A DNA stretch of 31,530 nucleotides. It comes from Anaerolineae bacterium. GTDB lineage: Bacteria; Chloroflexota; Anaerolineae; Anaerolineales; Villigracilaceae. Location of the stretch: the NCBI GenBank assembly GCA_041480885.1, contig JBGPAT010000001.1, positions 1 through 31,530 on the forward strand, given 5' to 3'. The notes under the pieces were generated by a model, which saw only the letters and a list, made by a program, of their open reading frames with translations, did no database searches and had not been told where the DNA came from. Shown piece after piece: positions 17,961 through 31,018 of the stretch. The number at the start of each line of letters is the position of its first letter. Position 1 is the first letter of the stretch. Position numbers and translations under genes: made by a program.

Positions 17961-18935
17961 ATGTCTTCTCGTGTCTACCGCCTTTTGATTGCGCTGATGT
18001 TTGCTCTGTTCGCGGCAGGCGCAACGTTACTGCTGGCGCGAGCGCAGGAGGGAACACCCGTCTCCCCCACGCAACCAGCCGCGCACGCGCCCGCCTGCGT
18101 CGCGTGCCACACCGAGTTCGCCACCGAATGGCAGAAAGGCCCGCACGGCCAAGCAGTGAGCGATCCAAAATTCGTCGATGAGTGGACTAAGCAGGGCAAG
18201 CCCGGTGCCTGTCTGGTTTGTCACGTCACAAACTATGATCCGGCAACGGGTACCTGGCTGGAGGATGGGGTCGCCTGCGAGGCGTGCCATGGGCCGCTGA
18301 AGGACGGCCATCCAAAGACCCCAATGCCCGTGGACCGCTCGCCCGAGCTTTGCGGCCGCTGTCACAGCGATGCGCGCTTCGGCTGGCAGGCATGGCAGGC
18401 AAGCGCGCACTTCCAGCGCGGTATGAACTGCACCACTTGTCATGATCCGCACAGTGCATCGCTGAAGGTCGTCGCCCCGCGGGACGGGAGTGCACAATAC
18501 AGCGACGCCTCGCAGTTGTGTGTCAACTGCCATAAAGACGTGAGCATGAACTTCCCTTACTCACAGCACCACCAGCGCGGTGTCTCATGCATAGACTGCC
18601 ACGTAACCCATACCGTGACGACCTCAGCCACGGCGCACACGATTCCGGGTCATTCCTTCAAGGCAAACCTTGATAGTTGCAACAAATGCCACTCTGATCA
18701 AATGCACACTGCCGCTTCGGCGTCATCCGCAAGCCAGCCGCAGACCTCCACGACTTCTGTCCCCGTGCAAATTGAGCAAGCCGGATTGGCAGCCCAGCCC
18801 AGCCCTGTTAGTCCCATCGGCTTCGCGGGTCTGGCTGCCCTAATCGGCCTTGCCGGTGGCATGGTGATGGCCCCTTGGCTTGAGAAGTGGTACGCTCGCC
18901 TGGTGAAGCACAATCGCGGAGGCGGGGATGACTAA
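17961..18935 (+). CDS. Octaheme cytochrome c, signal peptide and C-terminal membrane anchor
   Basis: 8 CXXCH motifs (CVACH, CLVCH, CEACH, CGRCH, CTTCH, CVNCH, CIDCH, CNKCH) and a C-terminal hydrophobic helix. Confidence 0.92.
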   Translation: MSSRVYRLLIALMFALFAAGATLLLARAQEGTPVSPTQPAAHAPACVACHTEFATEWQKGPHGQAVSDPKFVDEWTKQGKPGACLVCHVTNYDPATGTWLEDGVACEACHGPLKDGHPKTPMPVDRSPELCGRCHSDARFGWQAWQASAHFQRGMNCTTCHDPHSASLKVVAPRDGSAQYSDASQLCVNCHKDVSMNFPYSQHHQRGVSCIDCHVTHTVTTSATAHTIPGHSFKANLDSCNKCHSDQMHTAASASSASQPQTSTTSVPVQIEQAGLAAQPSPVSPIGFAGLAALIGLAGGMVMAPWLEKWYARLVKHNRGGGDD

Positions 18936-19698
18936 GACCGTGAGCCGTCGCGATTTTCTTAAGATCAGCGCCGCTGGAGCGACCGCCGCAGCCGCGGCGC
19001 AGGTCCTGAAGCAGGGCGCGGCGTCCGAAACCGCTGCGGAGGGTCCTCGTCAGTGGGTCATGGTCATCGATCAATCAAAGTGCATCGGGTGCGGCTACTG
19101 CACCCTCGCCTGCCAAGCTCACAATGATGTCAATCCCACCATAGAATGGAACCGCGTGACGCCGCTCGGGCAGCTGCAGGGAAAAGATATCTTCTTGCCG
19201 CGGCCCTGCATGCAATGCGCGAAGGCCCCTTGCGTTGATGTCTGCCCGGTCAAGGCATCTTATTACAGACCGGATGGCATCGTGATGATGGACTATGACC
19301 GGTGCATCGGCTGCAGGTATTGCGAAGTGGCCTGCCCGTATCAAGCCCGATCCTTCAACTGGAAAGCCTTCGATGGTCCGAACCCGGTTGTCCCTAAATG
19401 GGGACAACCTGAGGTAGCGCGCCGCCCGCGCGGCGTCGTGGAAAAATGTGCGTTCTGCTACCAGCGCATTGACCGCGGTCTCGCACAAGGTTTGCAGCCG
19501 GGTGTCGACCCGGATGCGACGCCGGCTTGTGTGGTTGCGTGCCCGACCGGTGCCCGCGTTTTCGGGGACATCAATGACCCGCAGTCCGATGTATCAACCA
19601 TGCTGAAGGACAACTTCAACTATCGTCTGCGCGACAATTTGGGCACGGGTGCGCGAGTCTACTACTTGCCTGCCGATGCAGCGGAGATGGAGGGATAA
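18928..19698 (+). CDS. Tat-exported 4x[4Fe-4S] protein (NrfC/DsrO/HybA/QrcC family)
   Basis: SRRDFLK Tat motif; CIGCGYC..C, CMQC..PC..VCP, CIGCRYC..ACP, CAFC..CVVACP. Confidence 0.93.
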   Translation: MTKTVSRRDFLKISAAGATAAAAAQVLKQGAASETAAEGPRQWVMVIDQSKCIGCGYCTLACQAHNDVNPTIEWNRVTPLGQLQGKDIFLPRPCMQCAKAPCVDVCPVKASYYRPDGIVMMDYDRCIGCRYCEVACPYQARSFNWKAFDGPNPVVPKWGQPEVARRPRGVVEKCAFCYQRIDRGLAQGLQPGVDPDATPACVVACPTGARVFGDINDPQSDVSTMLKDNFNYRLRDNLGTGARVYYLPADAAEMEG

Positions 19699-20963
19699 TG
19701 TTGAAGCGCCTGCGAGTCCAACTTCCTCCTCTAAAGGTTACACCGTGGGGCGTGTGGCTGGGGATTCTCGGCCTGGTGCTGTTGGCGGCCTCGACTGCCG
19801 GGGTCCTGGTCTTCTGGACCGGCCTGTGGATCACGAATCTCACCGATCTCGTGCCTTGGGGCCTGTGGATTACGATTGATCTCTCATCCATCGCATTGAG
19901 CGCGGGTGCGTTCACCCTCTGCGCAGCCGTATATTTGATCGGCCTTGAGCGCTACCAGCCCATCGCTCGCACTGCCACGTTTGTCGGCTTGATCGGATAC
20001 ACCATGGCAATGCTGTCGTTGCTGCTCGATATCGGCCGCCCGGATCGCTTTTGGCATGCGCTGGTCTACTGGAATGACCGCTCACTCCTTTGGGAAGTGA
20101 CCATGTGCGTCATGCTCTACCTGACGGTCTTAGTGTTCGAGTCACTCCCCATCTTCGCCGGGCTCGAGTGGTTCAAACAGCGCTTGCCAAAGTTGGCCAG
20201 GAAGATGAGCGGCACGCACCACTATGCGCCCTATCTTGCAATTGCGGGCCTCGCTCTTTCCTCCCTGCACCAGTCTTCGCTGGGAGCAATATACGGCGTG
20301 ATCAAAGCACGTCCCCTGTGGTACAAGCCTGAGATGGCCATCCTGTTCATGTTCTCGGCCATCGTTGGTGGCATTTCGCTGACCCTGTTCGCCTCCATGC
20401 TCTCAGCGCGCCTCACTCCCAAGGCGAAGATCAACGATGCCCTGATTGAGAGGGTGGCACACTTTGTCGCCTGGGCGCTGGTCGGGTACTTCTACTTCAG
20501 GTTTTGGGATGCGCTGGCTCAGCATTACACCTATGAGCCCGGGCGCACCGAGGGAATGGAATTGCTCACTGGAGGTCCGCTCTCGTTCAACTTTTGGGTG
20601 CTTGAAATGCTCCTTGGCACCCTCATTCCCATGATCATGCTTCTGACGCCATATACCCGCCGCCATCCATTCTGGCGCATGGTCGCCCTCGGCCTGGTTG
20701 TGGTGGGCGTGGTTGCCTACCGTTGGGACACGAATCTCTCGGGGCTCATGGTGGTTCTGTCGTATCTTCCGGGCGAGCAAGCGATCGCCTATGCTTCATA
20801 TTGGCCATCACTCGTAGAGCTGGTGGCGGGATCAGGCATCATCGCCTACGGGATGCTTGCCTTCTCGCTCGGCGTCCGTTACCTCAGGGTGGTGGATCAC
20901 CGCTACCTTGCAGACGAAGCTGAGGCCGTCAAGATCGAGTCGCCTGCCGCCGTGCGCGCCTAG
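19698..20963 (+). CDS. NrfD/PsrC-family integral membrane quinone-interacting subunit (HybB/QrcD/DsrP-like)
   Basis: PWGLWI..DL..IALSAGAF, LLLDIGRPDRFW, SLLWEV and LHQSSLG motifs; about 10 TM helices. Confidence 0.92.
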   Translation: MLKRLRVQLPPLKVTPWGVWLGILGLVLLAASTAGVLVFWTGLWITNLTDLVPWGLWITIDLSSIALSAGAFTLCAAVYLIGLERYQPIARTATFVGLIGYTMAMLSLLLDIGRPDRFWHALVYWNDRSLLWEVTMCVMLYLTVLVFESLPIFAGLEWFKQRLPKLARKMSGTHHYAPYLAIAGLALSSLHQSSLGAIYGVIKARPLWYKPEMAILFMFSAIVGGISLTLFASMLSARLTPKAKINDALIERVAHFVAWALVGYFYFRFWDALAQHYTYEPGRTEGMELLTGGPLSFNFWVLEMLLGTLIPMIMLLTPYTRRHPFWRMVALGLVVVGVVAYRWDTNLSGLMVVLSYLPGEQAIAYASYWPSLVELVAGSGIIAYGMLAFSLGVRYLRVVDHRYLADEAEAVKIESPAAVRA

Positions 20964-21072: not shown

Positions 21073-22770
21073 TCACTTCTCGGGCGCGCCAGCCGTTATC
21101 CATTGTCCAACCAGGTCAAGCTCTGCCGCCGAGAGATTCGCAAAGTGCTGAGAACTCTGGATCCTGATCAGTAAACTGTTCGTCGCGTCACCAGGCGCGA
21201 TCACGGCGCGGTCCTTGCCACCTTTCATCGTGCCCGCATAGGTGGTCAGGTCCATGCCCCCGGCGAGCGTGGTGGGATTGTGGCACATGGTGCACTTGGC
21301 GGCGAAAACCGGCCCAATGTTCGCGTCATATGTCGGATTGCCCACCACGGCGGCCGGCGTCGGCAGGGGAGCCGGCGTGGGAACCTGTGCCTGCAGAATG
21401 GACCGCAGAACAGGCGCATCAAATCCCGCATATGTAAAGACACTTCCATGACATGCGCTGTTTGAGCAGAATGACGTGTTGCTGGTTCCGCCAGCATCGG
21501 CCATGGTGTGGCAGGCGGAGCAGGTGGCGTCGATGCTCTTGTTATGCAGGCTGATCCAATTGGCGTTGCGATGAGACTCGGGCTCAGGCCCGCGGCTGAT
21601 TTCGATCTTGGTCACAAAGTCCTGGGAGCCGGCCACCACAGGCACCGAATGACATAGATTGCATTCGAGGCGAATCGCCTGCTGGCTCGCGTCGAGATGC
21701 TTTCCGTCGTGGCAGCGGAAGCAGCCCGCGGAATTGATATGGCCGACATTCGAAGGATGTGTGTTCCAATTGTCCTTCTGGTCCAGGAATGCGGAGTCGG
21801 AATAGATCTGCTGTAGCGCAGCAATGGCCTGCGTGATCTTGGCGGTATTTGCGCCGTAGAAGCCCGAATAGTGAGTCTGATAATAGTTGTCCAAACTCGC
21901 GATACCCGCCTGGGCCTCAGCCTGAGTGCTGTAATCACGCCTCAGCGCTTCGACTCCCAGCTTTCGGATGTCCGGAATATCCTTTGAGATGCCTCCCAGG
22001 GATAGTGCTTCATCCACCGACTCCTCAGGCGTGTAGATGTGGTGCGTAATGCGGTTGTGACAAGTAATGCAGTCCATCTCCTTAAGCTTGGCTGGATCTA
22101 CCTTGGCAGGATCGAAACCAGACTGGACATCCACGTAGTCTGTCTTGGAACCATCATCGTTGACCACCTGCACAAAGGGAATGGTCTGTTCCAGAGTATC
22201 GGTGGGATAGTAGTAGACCTGGTTGACGATGTGCCAGTGGATGCCGAGGCCCAGCCCTGGCCGCTTGGCGCCTCCGCCCGTCTTCAGCACAAGGTAGGTA
22301 CTGTAGGGTGTGTTCTGCTGATCAGGCTGGAAATGGGAGATCACTCGCAGACTGTCGTCTGAGAATTTCTCGGGCGAATGGCATTTCTCGCAGGTCTCAC
22401 GCGCCGGACGCATGTTCTGGATATATATCGGATACTCGTACGTGCTGAAGGCTGTCGCCAGGATGTGCCTCACATCACCAGCCTTGCGGAAGATCTGGTT
22501 ACCAATGAACTCACGTCCAATGTGGCAGTCCACACAAGCTATGCGCGAGTGGGGCGAGACTTGATAGGCTGCAAACTCCGGCGGCATCGTATGGCATGTC
22601 GTGCCGCAGAATGACGGGGAGTTGGTGTAGTCCCACGCATACGCGCCGCCCACCAGAAGTGACAGGGTCAGAAGCCCCAGCACCGCATACGGCAGGATCA
22701 GGAGCCACCGAGGAGAACTGCGAGGCGGAAAGAAGAAGTGGCGGATGGCAGATCGGACTCGTGCTAGCAT
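21073..22770 (-). CDS. NapC/NirT-type membrane multiheme cytochrome c (ImcH-like) with tethered C-terminal monoheme domain
   Basis: N-terminal TM helix, NSPSFCGTTCHTM..Y..SPH..CVDCH, 7 CXXCH plus one CX3CH and one CX4CH, PTPAP linker before the last heme. Confidence 0.88.
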   Translation of the reverse strand: MLARVRSAIRHFFFPPRSSPRWLLILPYAVLGLLTLSLLVGGAYAWDYTNSPSFCGTTCHTMPPEFAAYQVSPHSRIACVDCHIGREFIGNQIFRKAGDVRHILATAFSTYEYPIYIQNMRPARETCEKCHSPEKFSDDSLRVISHFQPDQQNTPYSTYLVLKTGGGAKRPGLGLGIHWHIVNQVYYYPTDTLEQTIPFVQVVNDDGSKTDYVDVQSGFDPAKVDPAKLKEMDCITCHNRITHHIYTPEESVDEALSLGGISKDIPDIRKLGVEALRRDYSTQAEAQAGIASLDNYYQTHYSGFYGANTAKITQAIAALQQIYSDSAFLDQKDNWNTHPSNVGHINSAGCFRCHDGKHLDASQQAIRLECNLCHSVPVVAGSQDFVTKIEISRGPEPESHRNANWISLHNKSIDATCSACHTMADAGGTSNTSFCSNSACHGSVFTYAGFDAPVLRSILQAQVPTPAPLPTPAAVVGNPTYDANIGPVFAAKCTMCHNPTTLAGGMDLTTYAGTMKGGKDRAVIAPGDATNSLLIRIQSSQHFANLSAAELDLVGQWITAGAPEK

Positions 22771-22784
22771 CGATATTCACCTCA

Positions 22785-24914
22785 TTAGTTGTCTTGCGCG
22801 CCGGAAGCAATCCAGTTCAGAATCACCTGGAGATCCGCTTGAGGCAGACTACCCTGGGGTGGCATGGTCTGGCCGTTCGTTCCCTGAAGCATCTGGGCCA
22901 ACGGACTCTTTTCTACGTTCCCGGCAATGACCACGGGGCCGCCCTTTCCGCCGGCCATCACCGTGCTGTAAGAAGAGGCATCCCAGCCACCCAGCTTCGT
23001 GCCGGAGTTGTGGCACACTTGGCAGTTTGCCTTAAGAATCGGGAGCACCTGACCAGAAAAACTTGATGCAGAGGGTGTAGCAGCGGGAGTCGCAGTGCCC
23101 TCCGGCGCGCTCGCGATTGGTTTCAGTGTTCGAATGTACTGCACTAGTTGTTGAAGCTGGCCGGCACTTAGGAGGTCCCCCCACGCAATCATGGGAGTCG
23201 CTTCCCGGCCTTTGTCAATGACATTGAGCAGAGACTGATCGTCATAGCGATTCTGAAAATCCGCCGTGTTGAAGGCGGGACCAATACCACCTTCGCCGTT
23301 GGCGCCATGGCACCTGGCACACACATTTGCAAAAACCTGGGAACCGCTGAGTGCTGCACGACCAGCTGCCACCTCGGCTGGCAGATTGACCGGCGGATTG
23401 GCTTCCCAACTTCGGATAAAGGCCACCAGAGCATCAATCTGGTCATCGCTCAGAGGTCCGCCATTGGCCGAGCCAAAGGGCGACATCCCAAAATTGGGCT
23501 GGCCTTGTGAAATGATACTCCGCAAAGTAAGGTCATCTCGCGTCTTGAGAAACTCAGCCGAACTGATCGGAACGATCGTCTGGCTCGGATTGGCCGGATT
23601 GGGACCGCCTTCGCCAAATTGCCCATGGCAAACCGCGCAATTGCTCACAAATAGCTGAGCACCCTCTTCCGCACTCTGCCCTTTGCTCGCTGTTAGAGTG
23701 TAGTTCACTAGTGCATCCAGCTGCTCGGGCGTCAGTATTTTTCCCCACACCGGCATCGTCACATGGGCGCCGCCGCTCGCGATGATCTTGCGGGCACTCT
23801 CGAGATCAGGAGCGGTTGGCACCGTATTGCCGTGACAGACGCTGCAGCGCTGTCCAAACAGGGTCTTGCCGGCTGGATTGGAGGCGGGATCGGTCACATA
23901 GGCGGCCAGAGTATCGAGGTCAGCCTGGCTCAAGGTACCCTGCCACGCCGGCATTGAAAGGTGCTGTCCGCCTTTGCTGATGATGTCACGCAGCTGACTT
24001 TCGGTGCCGGTGAACGTGACGCCAAACCCGTGGCAACCCGAGCAGTTGACCTCGAACAGCCGCTGACCGTCGGGTGCGGCGAGGAAATTCAGCACCGCAT
24101 TGCGCTGTGCGTCCGTCAGAGTCTGTTTCCAAGCAGGCGTGCTCTGTTTCTGATGCGGGGGGTAATTTGGCCCTTCCTCAAATACCCGTTGCAGCTCCTG
24201 CGGATTCCCAGAGGCCTGTACGAGCGTCTTATGGCACGCTCCACACTCCTGGGTGTAGACCGCACTACCATTTGGTGACGTAATGAAGCCAGCCAGGGCA
24301 TCAATTTCGTCGGTGCTGAGATCGCCTCCCCAAGCAGGCATGCCTTCGTGTTTGCCCTGAGCGATGAGTTGATGGAGATCGGTGCCAGCTGGCACGACAA
24401 TTCCGGGTCCGTGGCAATTGGCGCAGTTCTTGGCGTAGAGGGCAGCGGCTTGATCAACGGGCGCTGCCACTTGAGGCGGCGGCGACTCTCGCACGGAGAG
24501 TATGGTCAATGTGGCGATTCCCCCCACGACCAATAAAGCCAACACGCTCGCAATGGGCCGGTCGAGGAAATGGCGCCTTGTACTTCTATCGATGAACGGC
24601 AGGGCGAACAGCAGGAGAATCAACAATCCAGGAATTACCATGACGCCGACAACTTCCAGCTTGCCGGGGAAGTACTTCAGAAGCTGAAATAGGAAGAGGA
24701 AGTACCATTCCGGGCGAGGAGTGTACGTCGCGTCATTTGGATCTGCCCTTGCCTCCGTCGGGACACCCAGGAAGTACGCCAGTGCCACTAGGACCAGGAA
24801 GATCACCAGCGACACAACCACGTCCTTGAAGATGATGTCGGGAAAGAACGGGACTCCTTTTTCCTTGGCTTTCTTGTAGCGTTCGAGATATTCCTTCTTC
24901 TCTTTCTCGTTCAT
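22785..24914 (-). CDS. Cytochrome b6 subunit IV (PetD/QcrC-like) fused to seven monoheme c domains
   Basis: PFFPD..KD, PEWYFLF Qo motif, 3 TM helices, then CANCH, CGACH, CSGCH, CSVCH, CAVCH, CARCH, CQVCH. Confidence 0.92.
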   Translation of the reverse strand: MNEKEKKEYLERYKKAKEKGVPFFPDIIFKDVVVSLVIFLVLVALAYFLGVPTEARADPNDATYTPRPEWYFLFLFQLLKYFPGKLEVVGVMVIPGLLILLLFALPFIDRSTRRHFLDRPIASVLALLVVGGIATLTILSVRESPPPQVAAPVDQAAALYAKNCANCHGPGIVVPAGTDLHQLIAQGKHEGMPAWGGDLSTDEIDALAGFITSPNGSAVYTQECGACHKTLVQASGNPQELQRVFEEGPNYPPHQKQSTPAWKQTLTDAQRNAVLNFLAAPDGQRLFEVNCSGCHGFGVTFTGTESQLRDIISKGGQHLSMPAWQGTLSQADLDTLAAYVTDPASNPAGKTLFGQRCSVCHGNTVPTAPDLESARKIIASGGAHVTMPVWGKILTPEQLDALVNYTLTASKGQSAEEGAQLFVSNCAVCHGQFGEGGPNPANPSQTIVPISSAEFLKTRDDLTLRSIISQGQPNFGMSPFGSANGGPLSDDQIDALVAFIRSWEANPPVNLPAEVAAGRAALSGSQVFANVCARCHGANGEGGIGPAFNTADFQNRYDDQSLLNVIDKGREATPMIAWGDLLSAGQLQQLVQYIRTLKPIASAPEGTATPAATPSASSFSGQVLPILKANCQVCHNSGTKLGGWDASSYSTVMAGGKGGPVVIAGNVEKSPLAQMLQGTNGQTMPPQGSLPQADLQVILNWIASGAQDN

Positions 24915-25576
24915 CGCTGCTCATTCCTCTCCGGCAGAGCCGAAATGCCAATACGGATCACCAGGTAGAGGTGCGTCCCCACGAGGGCCGCCAGAGCTGC
25001 GGGCAATACCCAAACGTGCGTGCCAAAAAAGCGAGCCAGCGTCACCGCGGACAGATCAGTGCCGCCACGGGCGATCCGCAGGAGCCAATCACCTACCAGC
25101 GGAGCCACGCCAGCAATTCGAGTGCCAACGGTCGTAGCCCAGTACGCTTTCTGATCCCACGGCAGCAAATAGCCGGTAAAACCGAAACCAATCACTACCA
25201 GGAACAGCAGCACGCCCGTGATCCATGTGGCCTCGCGCGGATATTTGTACGCGCCATAAAAAAAGACTCGCAGAAGATGCAGAACCACCAACACGATCAA
25301 TGCGCTCGCACCCCAGTGGTGCAGGCCTCGGATGAGCCAGCCCGCCGGCAGTTGGGTCGTGATGTAGACGACGCTGTCATAGGCATGGTCAGGTGTCGGC
25401 ACGTAGTAAAGTGTGAGCAAGATTCCGGTCACCGCCTGAATGGTGGCGACGAAGAGCGTGGCGCTGCCCAACGTGTATAGCCAGTTTACGTGAGGCACCT
25501 TGCGCAGGAATATGGCCTCCCACACGCTGCGCCAGCTAAAGCGCTCTTCCATCCAATCGGCGAATTTTGCCAGCAT
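24911..25576 (-). CDS. qcrB: Cytochrome b6 (N-terminal, 4-TM) subunit of Rieske/cyt b complex
   Basis: QAVTGILL.LYYVP, His pairs H-x13-H and H-x14-H, GFTGYLLPWDQKAYWA. Confidence 0.94.
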   Translation of the reverse strand: MLAKFADWMEERFSWRSVWEAIFLRKVPHVNWLYTLGSATLFVATIQAVTGILLTLYYVPTPDHAYDSVVYITTQLPAGWLIRGLHHWGASALIVLVVLHLLRVFFYGAYKYPREATWITGVLLFLVVIGFGFTGYLLPWDQKAYWATTVGTRIAGVAPLVGDWLLRIARGGTDLSAVTLARFFGTHVWVLPAALAALVGTHLYLVIRIGISALPERNEQR

Positions 25577-25577
25577 A

Positions 25578-26057
25578 TCAACCTCGCTTTATGTAGAGAA
25601 TCCCGGCCGTCACTTTGCTCTGGAACCGGTCAAGAGGTCGAGGCGGTGGCCCAGATACGACGGTCCCATCCTTCGCAAACACGCCGTTATGACAAGGACA
25701 ATGGTACTTGCCATCGTCGGCGATCCAGCGCACTCTGCATCCCAGGTGGGTGCAAATGTTCGAAATGACCACAAAATCCTGTCCGTTGTCAGTCAAGACG
25801 TAAGCCGACACTTCCTCTTCGGTCTTGATCCAGCCCGTCTGTGTCTGAACCGTGGTCTTGAAAAGCGTGGGATTCCCCATCTCAACCTTGCTGATTGCTC
25901 CCAGCCGGATCCATGCATCAGTAGCCTGCGTCAGGGCCGGGCCGATAACGTATGCAATCGCTGGCAGCCCGATCGCGGCGCCGATGAGCCCGCCGATGCT
26001 GAAGATCGCCGCTTTCATGAAGTCCCGACGGCCAAGCGGCGGCGTTTTGTCTTTCAT
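25578..26057 (-). CDS. qcrA: Rieske [2Fe-2S] protein, Tat signal-anchor
   Basis: GRRDFMK, CTHLGC and CPCHNG boxes, GPPPRPL. GGAGG RBS precedes ATG 26057. Confidence 0.94.
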   Translation of the reverse strand: MKDKTPPLGRRDFMKAAIFSIGGLIGAAIGLPAIAYVIGPALTQATDAWIRLGAISKVEMGNPTLFKTTVQTQTGWIKTEEEVSAYVLTDNGQDFVVISNICTHLGCRVRWIADDGKYHCPCHNGVFAKDGTVVSGPPPRPLDRFQSKVTAGILYIKRG

Positions 26058-26082
26058 GGTTGACCTCCAGTGTTCAGTACCT

Positions 26083-27300
26083 TCACTTTTCGAGAGCTCC
26101 CGCATCGATCCAGGCTTTGACCAGCGCAAGCTCTTCAGGGGACAACTGGCCGGGATGACCGCCGCTGGTCTGGACCTGGAATAGTTTGCTGTTAGCCGCA
26201 TCACTTGGGACAATGACGGGGCCATCCGTTGCGCCTTTCAGGGCGTCTGCATAGCTGCTCAGGTTCAGCCCGTTGGTTGCTAGAGTTGTGCCATGACACA
26301 TCCCGCACCTCGACGCGAAGATCGGAGCCACCTCTCCCCAAGAGATGGGCGAGCTGGTTCCGGCCGCAGCCTGCGCCGTGGGCACCGACGTCGCAGCAGG
26401 TACCGCCGTCGGCGTCGGCGGCAGCGCAGTGGGTGTCTGCGGAACATAGATGGGAACAGTCGTGGCAATCTCCGGCGGGACTGTTGTGATGGCGGTCTGC
26501 TCGCCGTTCACGAATCCATAGACGGCAAAGAGCAGGACCAGCGCGACTATGGCCGCAATTGGGTAATAGACATGCTGGCGTTTTCGAAGCGCGGCCGGCT
26601 CTGGCAGGCGGTCCGCAAAGCCCGCTTTGATGTCTGCCAGCTCCAGCGGATGCTCATGGAGCATTTCTTCTTCGCTCGCGCGGCCTGTCCACATGGCCTT
26701 GTTGAATCGCCTGAGATGAACCCCATACATGTGCCAGACGATGATGGCCAGGACGGCCAAAACTGCTTCCGCGCCATGGGCCGTCTTGGCGGCCGGGATG
26801 ATGTCGCCTGGCAGGAGCCGGACAGTGGTAAGAGGGTTCCACATCATGAATCCCGTTAGACCCATGATCAGGATGCCCCAAACCAGGGCCCAGTATTCCG
26901 CCTTCTCTTCGAAACCATAACGTCCCAGCTGTGGACGGGATTTGACGAGACCGATGTTGTATCTGAAGGCGGACCACGCATCAAGGACGTCCTGCACGCC
27001 TGGCAACATCGCCAGCGGCCGGCGCAGGACAAAGATCTTGTATCCAAGATTCACGATGTGATAGACGGCCACCAGCATGAGCAGGATAGCCGCGACATGA
27101 TGGGTGGTCCGGACGCGCTCAATCCCACCAAAGGAACGAACCATGAATACCGAAACGGAACTCAGCGCGTATTTCTGCACCAGACCGGTAAGCGCCAGGG
27201 TTGTGAAGGACAGCAGCATCACGAGATGCTGAATGCGATCTGACAGAGTGAATCGAACGTAGTTCCGCCGCGGCGCGGGAGCAGCCGTCTTCTTTGCCAT
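26083..27300 (-). CDS. FdnI/HydC-type diheme cytochrome b with tethered C-terminal monoheme c domain
   Basis: RF..SDRIQH, RTTHH, GRYGFEEKAEYWAL.WG, AHG.EA..A...WH; PTPT linker, then CGMCH. Confidence 0.9.
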   Translation of the reverse strand: MAKKTAAPAPRRNYVRFTLSDRIQHLVMLLSFTTLALTGLVQKYALSSVSVFMVRSFGGIERVRTTHHVAAILLMLVAVYHIVNLGYKIFVLRRPLAMLPGVQDVLDAWSAFRYNIGLVKSRPQLGRYGFEEKAEYWALVWGILIMGLTGFMMWNPLTTVRLLPGDIIPAAKTAHGAEAVLAVLAIIVWHMYGVHLRRFNKAMWTGRASEEEMLHEHPLELADIKAGFADRLPEPAALRKRQHVYYPIAAIVALVLLFAVYGFVNGEQTAITTVPPEIATTVPIYVPQTPTALPPTPTAVPAATSVPTAQAAAGTSSPISWGEVAPIFASRCGMCHGTTLATNGLNLSSYADALKGATDGPVIVPSDAANSKLFQVQTSGGHPGQLSPEELALVKAWIDAGALEK

Positions 27301-28463
27301 TAGTGCTGCGCTCCCTTCCGCGCCTGGATCATGCGTCTGATAATGTCGGATACAACGAAGATCAGCATGCCGCCGATGACAGTCGGGATGAAGATCTTGT
27401 AGAACAGGCCAACGTAGTACACCAGCGGAGACCTCGTGGGGCTAGCGATGTAGTGGCTCATCCATGCGTCGGTGAAGCTCGTGGTGGTCACGTCGGGATG
27501 GCAGCGTTGGCATTTCGTCAGCAGATTCTGCTTGATGGCGATGCCAGTGGCAGGATTATCCACCTTGGAAATGTTGTGGACACCATGACAATCGGTACAC
27601 ACCGGCTTGTTAGTCGGCGTGTCCGGCGAGACCTGCTCAAAAAGCGTGACCGTGGTGCCGTGGAAGTCGGCCACGTAGGTGTTGAGGACCTGCGTTGTGA
27701 TGCCATACTTGCCCATGATCTGCGGATTGGTATGGCACTTTGCGCACAACAGAGGTGTGTCATTACGGAAGCGAGCCGTGGTCGGGTTCTGGATATTATG
27801 AACGCCGTGGCAGTCAATGCAGGTCGGCACATCCAGGTTGCCCTCGGTGGTGAGCGCCGCGCCATGGACGCTGTTCTTGTAGGTATTGTAGATCGTGCTG
27901 TGACAGCGCGCACACGTGAGTGGAATTTGCAGGCGCGCCTGGGGCAGGAGCTCCCCAGTCTGTTTATCGGTCATGCGGATCTGTTGGTGCGGGTTATGAC
28001 AATCGGTGCAGACCGCGGCGTTGTTGTTCCCGCCTGCCAGCGCCGTCTGGTGAACGCTGTCCAACACCTTGCTGTACTGTTCCGCATGGCAGTTCTTGCA
28101 GCTGGTGTAGAGCTGAAGCGTCACCTGTCGAAGGGAATCAGCTTTGAAATCGGTGTGCGGAAACGTAGTGATGTTCGTATGGCAGTCGGCACACGCGATG
28201 TTCTCCTGATCGTGCACGCTGTGGCCGAATAGACCAGGATCAATATACAGTGAGAGTATTTCGCCGCTGGGAAGGGTTTTCGTCAGGCCCTGCTGACTAT
28301 GACAACCCAGGCAAAAGTCATTGGAAGGTTTGTCCTGAACGCGTGTTGCGAACCCCCCCACGGCGCTTGCGGGCGTCGCGATGACGATCGCGGCAAGCAG
28401 AAGCAAGCCCAACGCCGAGACAAGCAAGACTGCTCTTAGTCGGTTGTTCGGCCGTGCGGTCAT
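27300..28463 (-). CDS. Nonaheme cytochrome c with signal peptide and C-terminal TM helix
   Basis: 9 CXXCH motifs. The stop overlaps the start of the cytochrome b gene (TAATG). AGGAG RBS. Confidence 0.92.
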   Translation of the reverse strand: MTARPNNRLRAVLLVSALGLLLLAAIVIATPASAVGGFATRVQDKPSNDFCLGCHSQQGLTKTLPSGEILSLYIDPGLFGHSVHDQENIACADCHTNITTFPHTDFKADSLRQVTLQLYTSCKNCHAEQYSKVLDSVHQTALAGGNNNAAVCTDCHNPHQQIRMTDKQTGELLPQARLQIPLTCARCHSTIYNTYKNSVHGAALTTEGNLDVPTCIDCHGVHNIQNPTTARFRNDTPLLCAKCHTNPQIMGKYGITTQVLNTYVADFHGTTVTLFEQVSPDTPTNKPVCTDCHGVHNISKVDNPATGIAIKQNLLTKCQRCHPDVTTTSFTDAWMSHYIASPTRSPLVYYVGLFYKIFIPTVIGGMLIFVVSDIIRRMIQARKGAQH

Positions 28464-28672: not shown

Positions 28673-30901
28673 CTATGGCCTCTTGAGCTTCGAAACATCC
28701 CCGCCGAGATCCTTGATCGAGTCATACAGGAACTGCATGACATATTGCGGATTGTGGGCAAAGGCGCCTGGGTCCTTGATGGAGTACTGGTAGTTATAGG
28801 CCGCCTCCAGCAGGCGAGGCGTCCAGGCGTTGTAGCCGATGTTGCCCGTGTCATTCGTATCTGGCTTGCCATCCTTGTTAGCATCCACAAAGAAGTACGG
28901 ATAGGTCGCGGCGTCGTACACAATTGCCGTGCCTGCCTTCTTCTCTGCATAGGCTTGGACAGCTGCATACAGCGCCGTGCGATAGCTGTCGATCTCTGCA
29001 TAGATGCCTTCGGTGACGTCGCCGTTGCCGTTCCAGTCCGTGGTATCGGTGGTCGCACGGATCTTATCCAGGTCAGCGGTGCCGGTGACATTGGTGTGGC
29101 AAGCCTTGCAGGCATCAACTTTCACCGTAAGCTGATGGACATCATGGCAGTCCGTGCACTTGTTAAGCGGATGCACCGTGTTCTGGCCGAGATACTTCTG
29201 ATTGGCGTATTGATAGGCACCCTTTGCCGCATCCCCAAACAGTGTCGCACCGGCGGCAAAGTAGTGGACGTTCTTGAAGCTGATCTTCGGATCAGCCGTG
29301 TCGAGGGGCTTGCCAGCCAGATAGTTATTCACGGTGACTGTGGACTCGCGGCCCTGGTGGCACTCGATGCACAGGTTCGCATCCACGGGCTTGAGCGTGC
29401 CGTCCGCGTTCTTCTCGGTGCTGAAAGTCAGCGAAACGCCTGAGGGGAACGGGACGCTCGTGACCGCATAGCGATTCGGCCAGTTGGCTTCGTCATGGCA
29501 GGTCGAGCACATGAAACCATTGGCAGCGGGCTGCCCAACCACCCCGGTGATCTGAACCCCGGACTTGGTCACGACCTCGGTGCCGCTATTCGCAATATAC
29601 TGCGGCAGACCGGTGGCGCTGTGGCACTTGGCGCATGCTGCATCAACGGTGCCAGTGGAATCCCAGTGGCGGAACGGTTCAGTGTCGCCCGCGAAGTGAC
29701 CCGCATCGTCCCGAGCCAGCTTGCTCATATCGACCGGCTTGGAAATCTTGCCGTTGAGGTCATCAATAGAGTCGTGGAGCAACTCAATGATGTACTTCGC
29801 GTTGTGAGCGAATGCGCCCGGATCCTTGGCAGACACCTGATAGTTGTAGGCAGCCTTCAGCAGACGCGCGGTCCACTTGCCGTAGGGGACAGGATTACCC
29901 TTGGCATCCTTGGCCACGGTCCCGTCGCTGGCTGCAGAAAGGAAGTAGGGATAGGTCGCCCCATCATAGACGACGGGTGCGCCCCCAACTTCAGTGGCAT
30001 ACGCCTGAATGGACGAATACAGGATATCCTGCAGGCCCTTCAGCTCGTAGTAGATGCCTTCCTTGGTGTCGCCATTGCCGTTGTAATCCGCAAGCGAACC
30101 GTTTTCGCGGTTGTTTTTCAGATCATCAACGGTTTTGACGCCCTGGTGGCACTGCGCGCACTGGTCCACGCGCACCTTGGTGGCGTGCTGGTCATGGCAG
30201 GCGATGCAGGTATCGAACTCCGGTACATGCCGGAACTTGGGATCGTAGGACTTGCCATCGTACTCATACCCCATTTGAGCCTGCGATCCGTACAGAGTCG
30301 CACCGGCCGCAAAGTAGTGGACATTGCGGAAGCCGAAGTTCACGGGCTTGCCGCTGGAATCCGTCATCGGCGCCACCACGGCATCGACGTCAGTGACCTT
30401 GAAGTCGCTGATCTGCTTGTCAACACTGACCTTGGACTCACGCCCCTGATGACAGCTCATGCAGCGCGCCTCACCTTCCTCGGAAGTCTGCACGACTTTT
30501 CCCGAGGGGAAGGTGACCGAGTTCAAAGCGATTGCGGCCGGGTTGTGGCAGGTGTCGCAGTTGAAGGTGCCGGCGGGAGCTTTCACGTCCGTGCTGGTCT
30601 TCCCGGTCGAGGCAAATTCCTGAAAGCCAGCCGAGGTATGGCATTTGGCGCAAGTCGCCGGAACTACGGCAGGCGTATCGCCATTCCAATGCGTGAAAGG
30701 CACAGCATTGGCATCCGCATGGCCGGAAGCCAGGAAGGCGTCCTTGAACGGGACGACGAGCGTCAGCGCGGGGGCCGCGGTGGTGGGGGCCGTCGTGGTG
30801 CCGCTGGTCGCCGGCGTAGCAGCGGTTCCCCCGCAGGCTGCCAGCGCGACAGCAGCTACGAGCATCACTCCTAGAAGAACGAGTACTTTCCTAAGGGACA
30901 T
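28673..30901 (-). CDS. Decaheme cytochrome c lipoprotein built from two tandem pentaheme modules
   Basis: Lipobox LAA-C after a hydrophobic signal (AAGGAG RBS precedes ATG 30901), 10 CXXCH motifs, duplicated NVHYFAAGATL and AAYNY..DPGAFAHN motifs. Confidence 0.92.
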   Translation of the reverse strand: MSLRKVLVLLGVMLVAAVALAACGGTAATPATSGTTTAPTTAAPALTLVVPFKDAFLASGHADANAVPFTHWNGDTPAVVPATCAKCHTSAGFQEFASTGKTSTDVKAPAGTFNCDTCHNPAAIALNSVTFPSGKVVQTSEEGEARCMSCHQGRESKVSVDKQISDFKVTDVDAVVAPMTDSSGKPVNFGFRNVHYFAAGATLYGSQAQMGYEYDGKSYDPKFRHVPEFDTCIACHDQHATKVRVDQCAQCHQGVKTVDDLKNNRENGSLADYNGNGDTKEGIYYELKGLQDILYSSIQAYATEVGGAPVVYDGATYPYFLSAASDGTVAKDAKGNPVPYGKWTARLLKAAYNYQVSAKDPGAFAHNAKYIIELLHDSIDDLNGKISKPVDMSKLARDDAGHFAGDTEPFRHWDSTGTVDAACAKCHSATGLPQYIANSGTEVVTKSGVQITGVVGQPAANGFMCSTCHDEANWPNRYAVTSVPFPSGVSLTFSTEKNADGTLKPVDANLCIECHQGRESTVTVNNYLAGKPLDTADPKISFKNVHYFAAGATLFGDAAKGAYQYANQKYLGQNTVHPLNKCTDCHDVHQLTVKVDACKACHTNVTGTADLDKIRATTDTTDWNGNGDVTEGIYAEIDSYRTALYAAVQAYAEKKAGTAIVYDAATYPYFFVDANKDGKPDTNDTGNIGYNAWTPRLLEAAYNYQYSIKDPGAFAHNPQYVMQFLYDSIKDLGGDVSKLKRP

Positions 30902-31018
30902 AGTTGCATTCTCCTTTCGGGCCGTTCGATGAAGATGGTTGTGCTGCATAAAGGCGACGATAGACGAACCTCTAAGGTCGACGCACAATACGCGCCTTTT
31001 TTGGGCCATATCTAGCCC

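Follow-up and report, generated by a model that had tools for sequence, protein, structure and literature searches.

Why should three different quinol oxidoreductases, encoded side by side in one bacterial genome, each end in a small monohaem cytochrome domain, and do these domains serve one and the same electron acceptor? The question is raised by a stretch of 31,530 nucleotides (the whole of which we call the window; contig JBGPAT010000001.1 of assembly GCA_041480885.1) from a metagenome-assembled genome (MAG) of an uncultured member of the Anaerolineales (Chloroflexota), 2.97 Mb in size and 84.5% complete. A respiratory island on the minus strand of the window carries decahaem, nonahaem, FdnI-type, bc and NapC-type genes, and three of the encoded proteins, the NapC-type cytochrome, subunit IV of the bc complex and the FdnI-type cytochrome b, each end in such a domain, here called the tail. 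A first-pass annotation of this DNA had read the tails as one standardized swinging-arm plug, tuned to different potentials, that docks on a single acceptor such as the decahaem protein. Using a number of different approaches, we find that the three tails are homologous, and that the difference between a His and a Met at the place of the putative distal ligand is real and conserved. The tails nevertheless belong to two subfamilies, each following the type of its host, so we regard them as built-in carriers for different branches of the respiratory chain rather than as one shared plug. The three hosts, their tails and two of the linkers are the following:

21073..22770, minus strand: NapC/NirT (ImcH-like) membrane multihaem cytochrome, P0001, 565 amino acids, nine haem motifs; matches PF03264 (E 7.4e-12) and PSCyt1
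21076..21339, minus strand: tail 1, on the NapC host, a His-type PSCyt1 monohaem domain; CxxCH at 21280-21294, candidate distal His542 at 21145-21147
21340..21384, minus strand: Pro-rich linker before tail 1, 15 amino acids (orthologue median 12)
22785..24914, minus strand: subunit IV of the bc complex (three transmembrane helices) followed by six class I cytochrome c domains and tail 2, P0002, seven haems, 709 amino acids; matches PF00032, PF13442 in seven stretches, and PSCyt1
22788..23069, minus strand: tail 2, on the subunit IV host, a Met-type (canonical) PSCyt1 domain; CxxCH at 23010-23024, candidate distal Met684, in a Met-Pro-Pro motif, at 22863-22865
26083..27300, minus strand: FdnI/HydC-type dihaem cytochrome b, P0003, 405 amino acids, with a fifth transmembrane helix at 26509-26568; matches PF01292 (E 7.5e-13) and PSCyt1
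26086..26349, minus strand: tail 3, on the FdnI host, a His-type PSCyt1 domain; CxxCH at 26293-26307, candidate distal His382 at 26155-26157
26350..26508, minus strand: Pro/Thr/Ala-rich linker before tail 3, 53 amino acids, the sole long arm of the three

The three tails score 28.8, 30.0 and 28.3 bits against PSCyt1 (PF07635), above the Pfam gathering cut-off of 22, which upholds the likeness to the planctomycete cytochrome c domain first noticed from the letters alone. When all of the 84.5%-complete MAG was scanned in six frames, their scores were 33.9, 36 and 31.8 bits, and no PSCyt1 copies came up beyond these three. When the tails are aligned with each other by BLASTP, those of the NapC and FdnI types share 45% identity (E 6e-26), and that of subunit IV shares 30% identity with either of them (E 2e-15 and 1e-13). 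Furthermore, a profile of 33 His-type sequences matches a profile of 16 Met-type sequences with a probability of 99.9% (hhalign, E 9.5e-32). Every tail has a single CxxCH after its first helix (CTMCH, CQVCH and CGMCH), invariant in the 33 and 16 aligned relatives, and a C-terminal helix with the motif W-I-x-x-G-A. Family scores, BLASTP and hhalign thus agree with the first-pass annotation that a homologous domain of about 90 amino acids with one CxxCH ends all three proteins, and the codons which it had singled out for His542, Met684 and His382 are exact to the nucleotide.

Within this common family, the tail of subunit IV alone matches the PSCyt1 profile from end to end (1-59 of 59), including the Met-Pro region. 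The NapC and FdnI tails match positions 1-44 only, the Met-Pro part being without a match, and therefore form a divergent subtype of PSCyt1. We also observed that both His-type tails finish at the C-terminus of the protein with a conserved Gly-Ala-(Pro/Leu)-Glu-Lys (21076-21090 and 26086-26100, minus strand), and that most orthologues are conserved to the last residue.

To what extent the choice between His and Met is kept by each host was read from 80 related loci, in MAGs labelled Anaerolineales, Anaerolineae or Chloroflexota (about 80 species-level genomes), whose six-frame open reading frames (ORFs) were scanned with the domain profile. Tails of the FdnI type carry the His in 83/83 domains, typically in the motif Gly-Gly-His-Pro-Gly-Gln-Leu; tails of the NapC type carry it in 40 of 42, in the motif His-Phe-x-Asn-Leu, and the two exceptions are truncated hits. 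For subunit IV, Met-Pro-Pro is present in all 19 scanned orthologues and invariant in the 16 that were aligned. In curated alignments this His or Met is, besides the His of CxxCH, the sole invariant His or Met of its subfamily and so the candidate sixth ligand. The tail itself is just as constant, being present on 78/80 FdnI, 39/43 NapC and 18/18 subunit IV orthologues; both tail-less FdnI cases and two of the four tail-less NapC cases trace to contig ends or frameshifts. Both the His and the Met belong to the loop that precedes the last helix. They occupy different alignment columns, two apart in hhalign, and this loop has 4-6 more residues in the Met type than in the His type. A simple substitution of Met by His is ruled out by these two differences, and the longer Met loop therefore speaks for a remodelled loop. 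The idea that the tails differ in their sixth ligand thus stands in so far as the residue is the only invariant candidate and is conserved by host, although not as an exchange within one alignment column, and we consider this position likely to be the sixth ligand.

Structures of relatives give both residues a precedent. The AlphaFold2 model of the His-type domain (pLDDT, the predicted local distance difference test, 96.2) has as its top Foldseek match in the PDB the C-terminal domain of hydrazine synthase alpha (5C2V, TMq 0.68), and VIA aligns it with this protein over 87 amino acids with a Z-score of 7.3. The best VIA score is to FoxE (5MAB; Z 11.7 over 90 amino acids, root-mean-square deviation 2.3 A), which is also the best PDB sequence match (E 4e-12), and PccH scores a Z of 7.1. 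According to HMMER, the invariant His of the His-type profile aligns with SEQRES His745 of 5c2v_A. The CxxCH His of 5C2V, SEQRES 662, is His689 (PMC12607021), an offset of 27, and the aligned residue is therefore His772, so that His-type tails have a His at the position of the residue that coordinates the iron of the bis-His haem alphaII from the distal side (PMC12758564). This haem titrates near -330 mV (PMC12607021). The haems of FoxE are instead His/Met-ligated (PMC10654088). Its Arg-Met-Pro-Pro aligns with the Met-Pro-Pro of the subunit IV tail, which is the only one of the three to have a Met in the Met-Pro loop motif before the last helix. The potentials of FoxE are reportedly about +200 to +270 mV. 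Both ligations are thus documented in solved relatives of the fold and each tail, as far as alignment can tell, holds the matching residue; it is from these relatives that we infer the ligation and the potentials of the domains in the window.

The way in which the tails are attached is also not uniform. Read from the sequence, the NapC type has one N-terminal transmembrane helix, subunit IV has three, and a fifth precedes the FdnI tail, a topology that agrees with the attachment of c-type haem on the outside. The Pro/Thr/Ala linkers described at first pass are indeed present on all three proteins, but they are unequal, with 53 amino acids in the FdnI type against about 15 in the NapC type and about 20, by eye, in subunit IV, where an automatic measure gives an orthologue median of 6. 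In FdnI orthologues the linker reaches up to 63 amino acids and consists of 25% Pro and 25% Thr. The proposed swinging arm is therefore convincing for the FdnI type and not for the NapC type or subunit IV, whose linkers are short.

The descent of the domains separates the same two types. In a maximum-likelihood tree of 174 domains (92 columns, with many unresolved forks), the Met tails of subunit IV form their own clade apart from the His tails, with 99/94 support and in 100% of the bootstrap trees. The NapC tails form one clade as well (96/92), which groups with only 18 of the 83 FdnI tails (99/90) and is thus nested in the diversity of FdnI tails. Should the tree be rooted among the Met types, the NapC tail would be a copy of the one on the neighbouring FdnI protein. 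A recent shuffling of one module onto all three hosts is ruled out for the Met tail, which forms a separate clade and is no closer to the His tails than are domains of the Met type in unrelated proteins.

The remaining genes of the island and its surroundings are:

17961-20963: multihaem/NrfC/NrfD triad, transcribed divergently from the island
24911..25576, minus strand: cytochrome b6-type subunit of the same bc complex; PF00033 (E 4.3e-50)
25578..26057, minus strand: Rieske Fe-S subunit; PF00355; start taken from the twin-arginine motif
27300..28463, minus strand: nonahaem cytochrome c with a C-terminal transmembrane helix, overlapping the FdnI-type gene; its split CbcL-like partner
28673..31009, minus strand: decahaem lipoprotein, the acceptor proposed at first pass; from the ORF list and domain scan

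These genes do not travel as a set. Among 41 related loci with full 10-kb flanks (within L004-L083), the pair of nonahaem and FdnI genes is present in 41/41, the NrfCD triad in 32-34 and the NapC type in 28. A decahaem gene lies within 10 kb in 15 of them and a bc complex in 13, the bc genes being an optional insert placed before or after the NapC gene. The nonahaem orthologues share 52-79% identity. Two details of gene structure may be added. The longest Rieske ORF (25578-26225, minus strand) overlaps the end of the FdnI-type gene, that is its tail, by about 140 nucleotides, and the position of the twin-arginine motif points to a start near 26057 instead, without any overlap. The NapC-type protein has, besides seven CxxCH, a non-standard CX3CH (Cys55-His60) and a non-standard CX4CH (Cys435-His441), at 22591-22608 and 21448-21468 of the minus strand.

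Based on these results, we think it probable, if far from settled, that the window encodes terminal haems of two types. Each of the three quinol-linked membrane modules would end outside the cell membrane in its own tethered PSCyt1 haem, which would be the last and more or less mobile haem of the module and whose ligand type would follow that of the host chain. In multihaem chains, the haems are mostly bis-His-ligated and of low potential, and two of the hosts are multihaem modules. Their tails, on NapC and FdnI, would be of a bis-His subtype homologous to haem alphaII and presumably of low potential; they may extend the bis-His chains (nonahaem and others) towards low-potential extracytoplasmic acceptors, and where the tail is repeated 2-6 times, as in relatives, it could form a wire of "haems on a string". 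The third host is of another kind, its six class I domains holding Met-Pro, Met-Ser or Pro-Met motifs. Its tail would be the canonical His/Met subtype, FoxE-like and probably of higher potential, and would close a chain of six His/Met class I domains, most likely donating to a high-potential acceptor such as a caa3-type oxidase encoded elsewhere in the genome. Two COX1 genes and one cytochrome bd-like gene are present in the genome. One of the COX1 genes (E 7e-146; contig C115:2279-4193, minus strand) has behind it a frame of 341 amino acids that contains a class I cytochrome c domain, an arrangement known from caa3-type oxidases, and this frame is a candidate acceptor of the bc Met tail. The six domains with Met motifs, together with the COX1 and caa3-like genes, therefore make it plausible that electrons pass from the bc complex to an oxidase along a high-potential route.

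Several of our observations count against this explanation. The model of the Met-type domain, although it has the same helix order (four helices) as the His type, reaches only a moderate pLDDT of 75, and the AlphaFold2 models are without haem. In Foldseek, nothing in the PDB was found at E <= 0.001, the best match being at 0.011; with E-values this weak, the structural link rests on the VIA Z-scores and on HMMER. Homology to haem alphaII of hydrazine synthase says nothing on function, because no role in electron transfer is assigned to that haem (PMC12607021). Ligand type alone does not fix the potential. PccH, for example, is said to have His/Met ligation at about -24 mV, so that the ranges of the two ligand types can overlap. 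Finally, with linkers of about 15-20 amino acids, the tails of the NapC type and subunit IV may be fixed end domains rather than mobile arms.

Other explanations of the tails have to be set against the same data. The single plug with one common acceptor draws on real features of the locus, since the tails are of one Pfam family, are encoded in one gene island beside the decahaem gene and are all held outside the membrane on Pro/Thr/Ala linkers, and since a lipobox and a Thr/Ala/Pro linker tether the decahaem protein as well. However, a plug of this kind would be expected neither to fall into two subfamilies at 30% identity, with the Met tails in their own well-supported clade and the NapC tail nested among FdnI tails, nor to sit on modules of which the FdnI tail is found in all 41 loci while the bc complex and the decahaem gene are found in 13 and 15. 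Moreover, the ligand type of each tail follows its host chain, and in solved relatives bis-His and His/Met forms are reported several hundred mV apart; haems that differ in this way would not naturally donate to one acceptor. We have therefore given up the plug docking on the decahaem protein, which now seems to us very unlikely. A complex prediction for the His-type tail and the soluble part of the nonahaem protein (residues 40-345) scored 0.01 against a mark of 0.32; the tool gave no verdict, and the result weighs on neither side.

The tails could also be terminal reactive sites, acting directly on soluble or mineral substrates such as Fe chelates, humics or electrodes and docking on no protein at all, a role that has been proposed for FoxE, PccH and PgcA. 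The company they keep in fold space would suit this, as it includes FoxE, an Fe(II) oxidase, and PccH, which has been linked to the uptake of electrons from electrodes; the domains of PgcA, which reduce acceptors directly, likewise use Pro/Thr stretches, and the strings of 2-6 beads in relatives could be seen in the same light. We nevertheless hold such a role to be quite improbable: the island encodes large multihaem proteins that would make better terminal reductases, the tail of the bc protein comes after a His/Met class I chain, a ligand type that usually means a higher potential and so suits metal reduction poorly, and no substrate-binding feature was identified in the tails. A structural, assembly or redox-sensing appendage through which no electron passes, like haem alphaII, which is too far from other haems and is without an assigned function (PMC12607021), has that precedent in its favour and is, to our mind, extremely improbable. 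Against it, conservation on the three hosts is strict throughout some 80 genomes, for the CxxCH and the distal ligand as well as for the tail as a whole, the number of beads expands to six, and a position at the end of the chain fits electron transfer. Terminal haems of two types, each matched to its host chain, thus remain the explanation that we prefer.

The wider family shows what can become of such a domain. Among 1.84 billion representative proteins, 33,848 match the domain profile at E <= 0.001, and the best 150 of these hold 213 His-type and 191 Met-type domains in arrays such as HHH, MM and MHH. Roughly 450 genomes carry the FdnI-type protein. All ten of the top His-array proteins tested consist of an FdnI-type cytochrome b followed by 2-6 PSCyt1 domains. 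Relatives with tandem domains include:

L025, L030, L071; P0004-P0007, P0012, P0014, P0016: FdnI relatives with 2 to 6 tandem His-type PSCyt1 domains

The gene of the six-bead protein P0005 (L087, 7001-9745) overlaps an upstream gene for a multihaem protein of 377 amino acids. The few source annotations that were looked up read "formate dehydrogenase gamma subunit" or "mono/diheme cytochrome c family protein". Since all ten of these arrays follow an FdnI-type protein, the His-type bead is a common appendage, of variable length, of split CbcL-like modules. A further possibility, tentative and in our estimate unlikely, is that in monoderm Chloroflexota the His-type bead is the unit of a redox string of adjustable length, with one to six beads on Pro/Thr tethers growing from quinol oxidoreductases, and that neighbouring tails swap electrons promiscuously at the membrane surface. 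If so, such strings would be a protein-tethered substitute for a periplasmic cytochrome pool, through which the cell would direct electrons from quinol into either the low-potential, extracellular branch or the high-potential branch that leads to an oxidase, and they might reach across the cell wall. As to how tandem beads fold, we observed that the model of a single domain spans FoxE residues 35-259, across both repeats of that protein, in which the Met following one CxxCH ligates the other haem (PMC10654088). It seems that the two repeats of FoxE swap halves to make up each fold unit, and tandem PSCyt1 arrays may do likewise.

Tethering of cytochromes c is an established principle in monoderm cells, as in QcrC of Bacillus, actinobacterial QcrC and cytochrome cy, and the first-pass annotation had supposed that the tails replace diffusible cytochromes in a cell with no closed periplasm. 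That tethered carriers suit a cell without an outer membrane is plausible here, as a search of the genome, 84.5% complete, gave no Omp85 gene and Anaerolineales probably lack a Gram-negative envelope (PMC7399161). A few further frames of 175-292 amino acids with class I cytochrome c domains are present in the genome, and the absence of diffusible cytochromes therefore cannot be claimed.

Importantly, the parts and the principle are all known, and this tail type is widespread in Anaerolineales. Our literature searches found no description of PSCyt1 tails on bc, CbcL-like or ImcH-like modules, and nothing established is overturned by them; what the locus provides is a clean example of how a ligand may tune the potential, and of haem strings anchored to enzymes. 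Nature has placed a conserved switch between His and Met in one small fold on three quinol oxidoreductases, so the tuning of potential by the axial ligand can be tested with three short constructs, in a family that holds tens of thousands of members in metagenomes. In this way the widespread, uncultured Anaerolineales of soil and sediment may connect their quinones to acceptors outside the cell as well as to oxygen-linked ones, with no need for diffusible cytochromes.

Comparison with known systems places the three proteins more precisely. In Planctomycetota, PSCyt1 classically heads large proteins of unknown function, whereas here it is the C-terminal tail of quinol-linked respiratory subunits. 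Hydrazine synthase alpha of Kuenenia stuttgartiensis, with about 20-29% identity, is part of a soluble anammox enzyme, and FoxE of Rhodobacter ferrooxidans SW2 is a soluble periplasmic dihaem protein in which each fold unit uses parts of both repeats. Respiratory cytochromes c that are tethered or fused are represented by cytochrome cy of Rhodobacter, cytochrome cz of Chlorobium and QcrC of Bacillus and actinobacteria, in which an anchor and a linker replace the diffusible carrier; cytochrome cz and QcrC chains are among our weak structural and sequence matches. The bc protein of the window is QcrC-like in its domain order, with PF00032 at residues 60-147, then seven CxxCH, and with the b6 and Rieske genes upstream. 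It differs from QcrC, cy and cz in having seven haems and not one or two, in the cytochrome c subfamily of its tail, and in that the same tail is also found on quinol oxidoreductases other than bc complexes. The FdnI-type protein and its nonahaem partner have the same parts as CbcL of Geobacter sulfurreducens, an FdnI/HydC dihaem cytochrome b and nine c haems, but these are split between two overlapping genes that are always paired (41/41), and the single polypeptide of CbcL (b plus nonahaem c) is absent here. The NapC/NirT multihaem protein P0001 resembles ImcH, also of Geobacter sulfurreducens. Both CbcL and ImcH are quinol oxidases of the inner membrane that serve extracellular electron transfer. 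A survey of CbcL and ImcH counts none of the former and one of the latter in Chloroflexi.

The closest functional parallel is PgcA of Geobacter sulfurreducens, in which homologous monohaem domains are joined by Pro/Thr linkers, two being His-Met and one His-His, with measured potentials that differ because of this ligation, and from which its authors define "heme-tethered redox strings" (PMC10570954). The likeness is best for the FdnI tail, with its linker of 53 amino acids rich in Pro and Thr and the 2-6 beads of its relatives, and weaker for the tails of NapC and subunit IV, with linkers of 15-20 amino acids. The domains of PgcA are OmcF-like and of about 65 amino acids as compared to about 90 for the PSCyt1 fold, and OmcF ranks only 29th among the structural matches (TMq 0.25). 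Furthermore, PgcA is released from the cell, unlike the tails described here, which are fused to integral membrane quinol oxidoreductases. By this analogy the tails would work like the PgcA class without being members of it by descent, and they would extend the design of "haems on a string" from a secreted Geobacter protein to enzyme-anchored strings of a different domain family.

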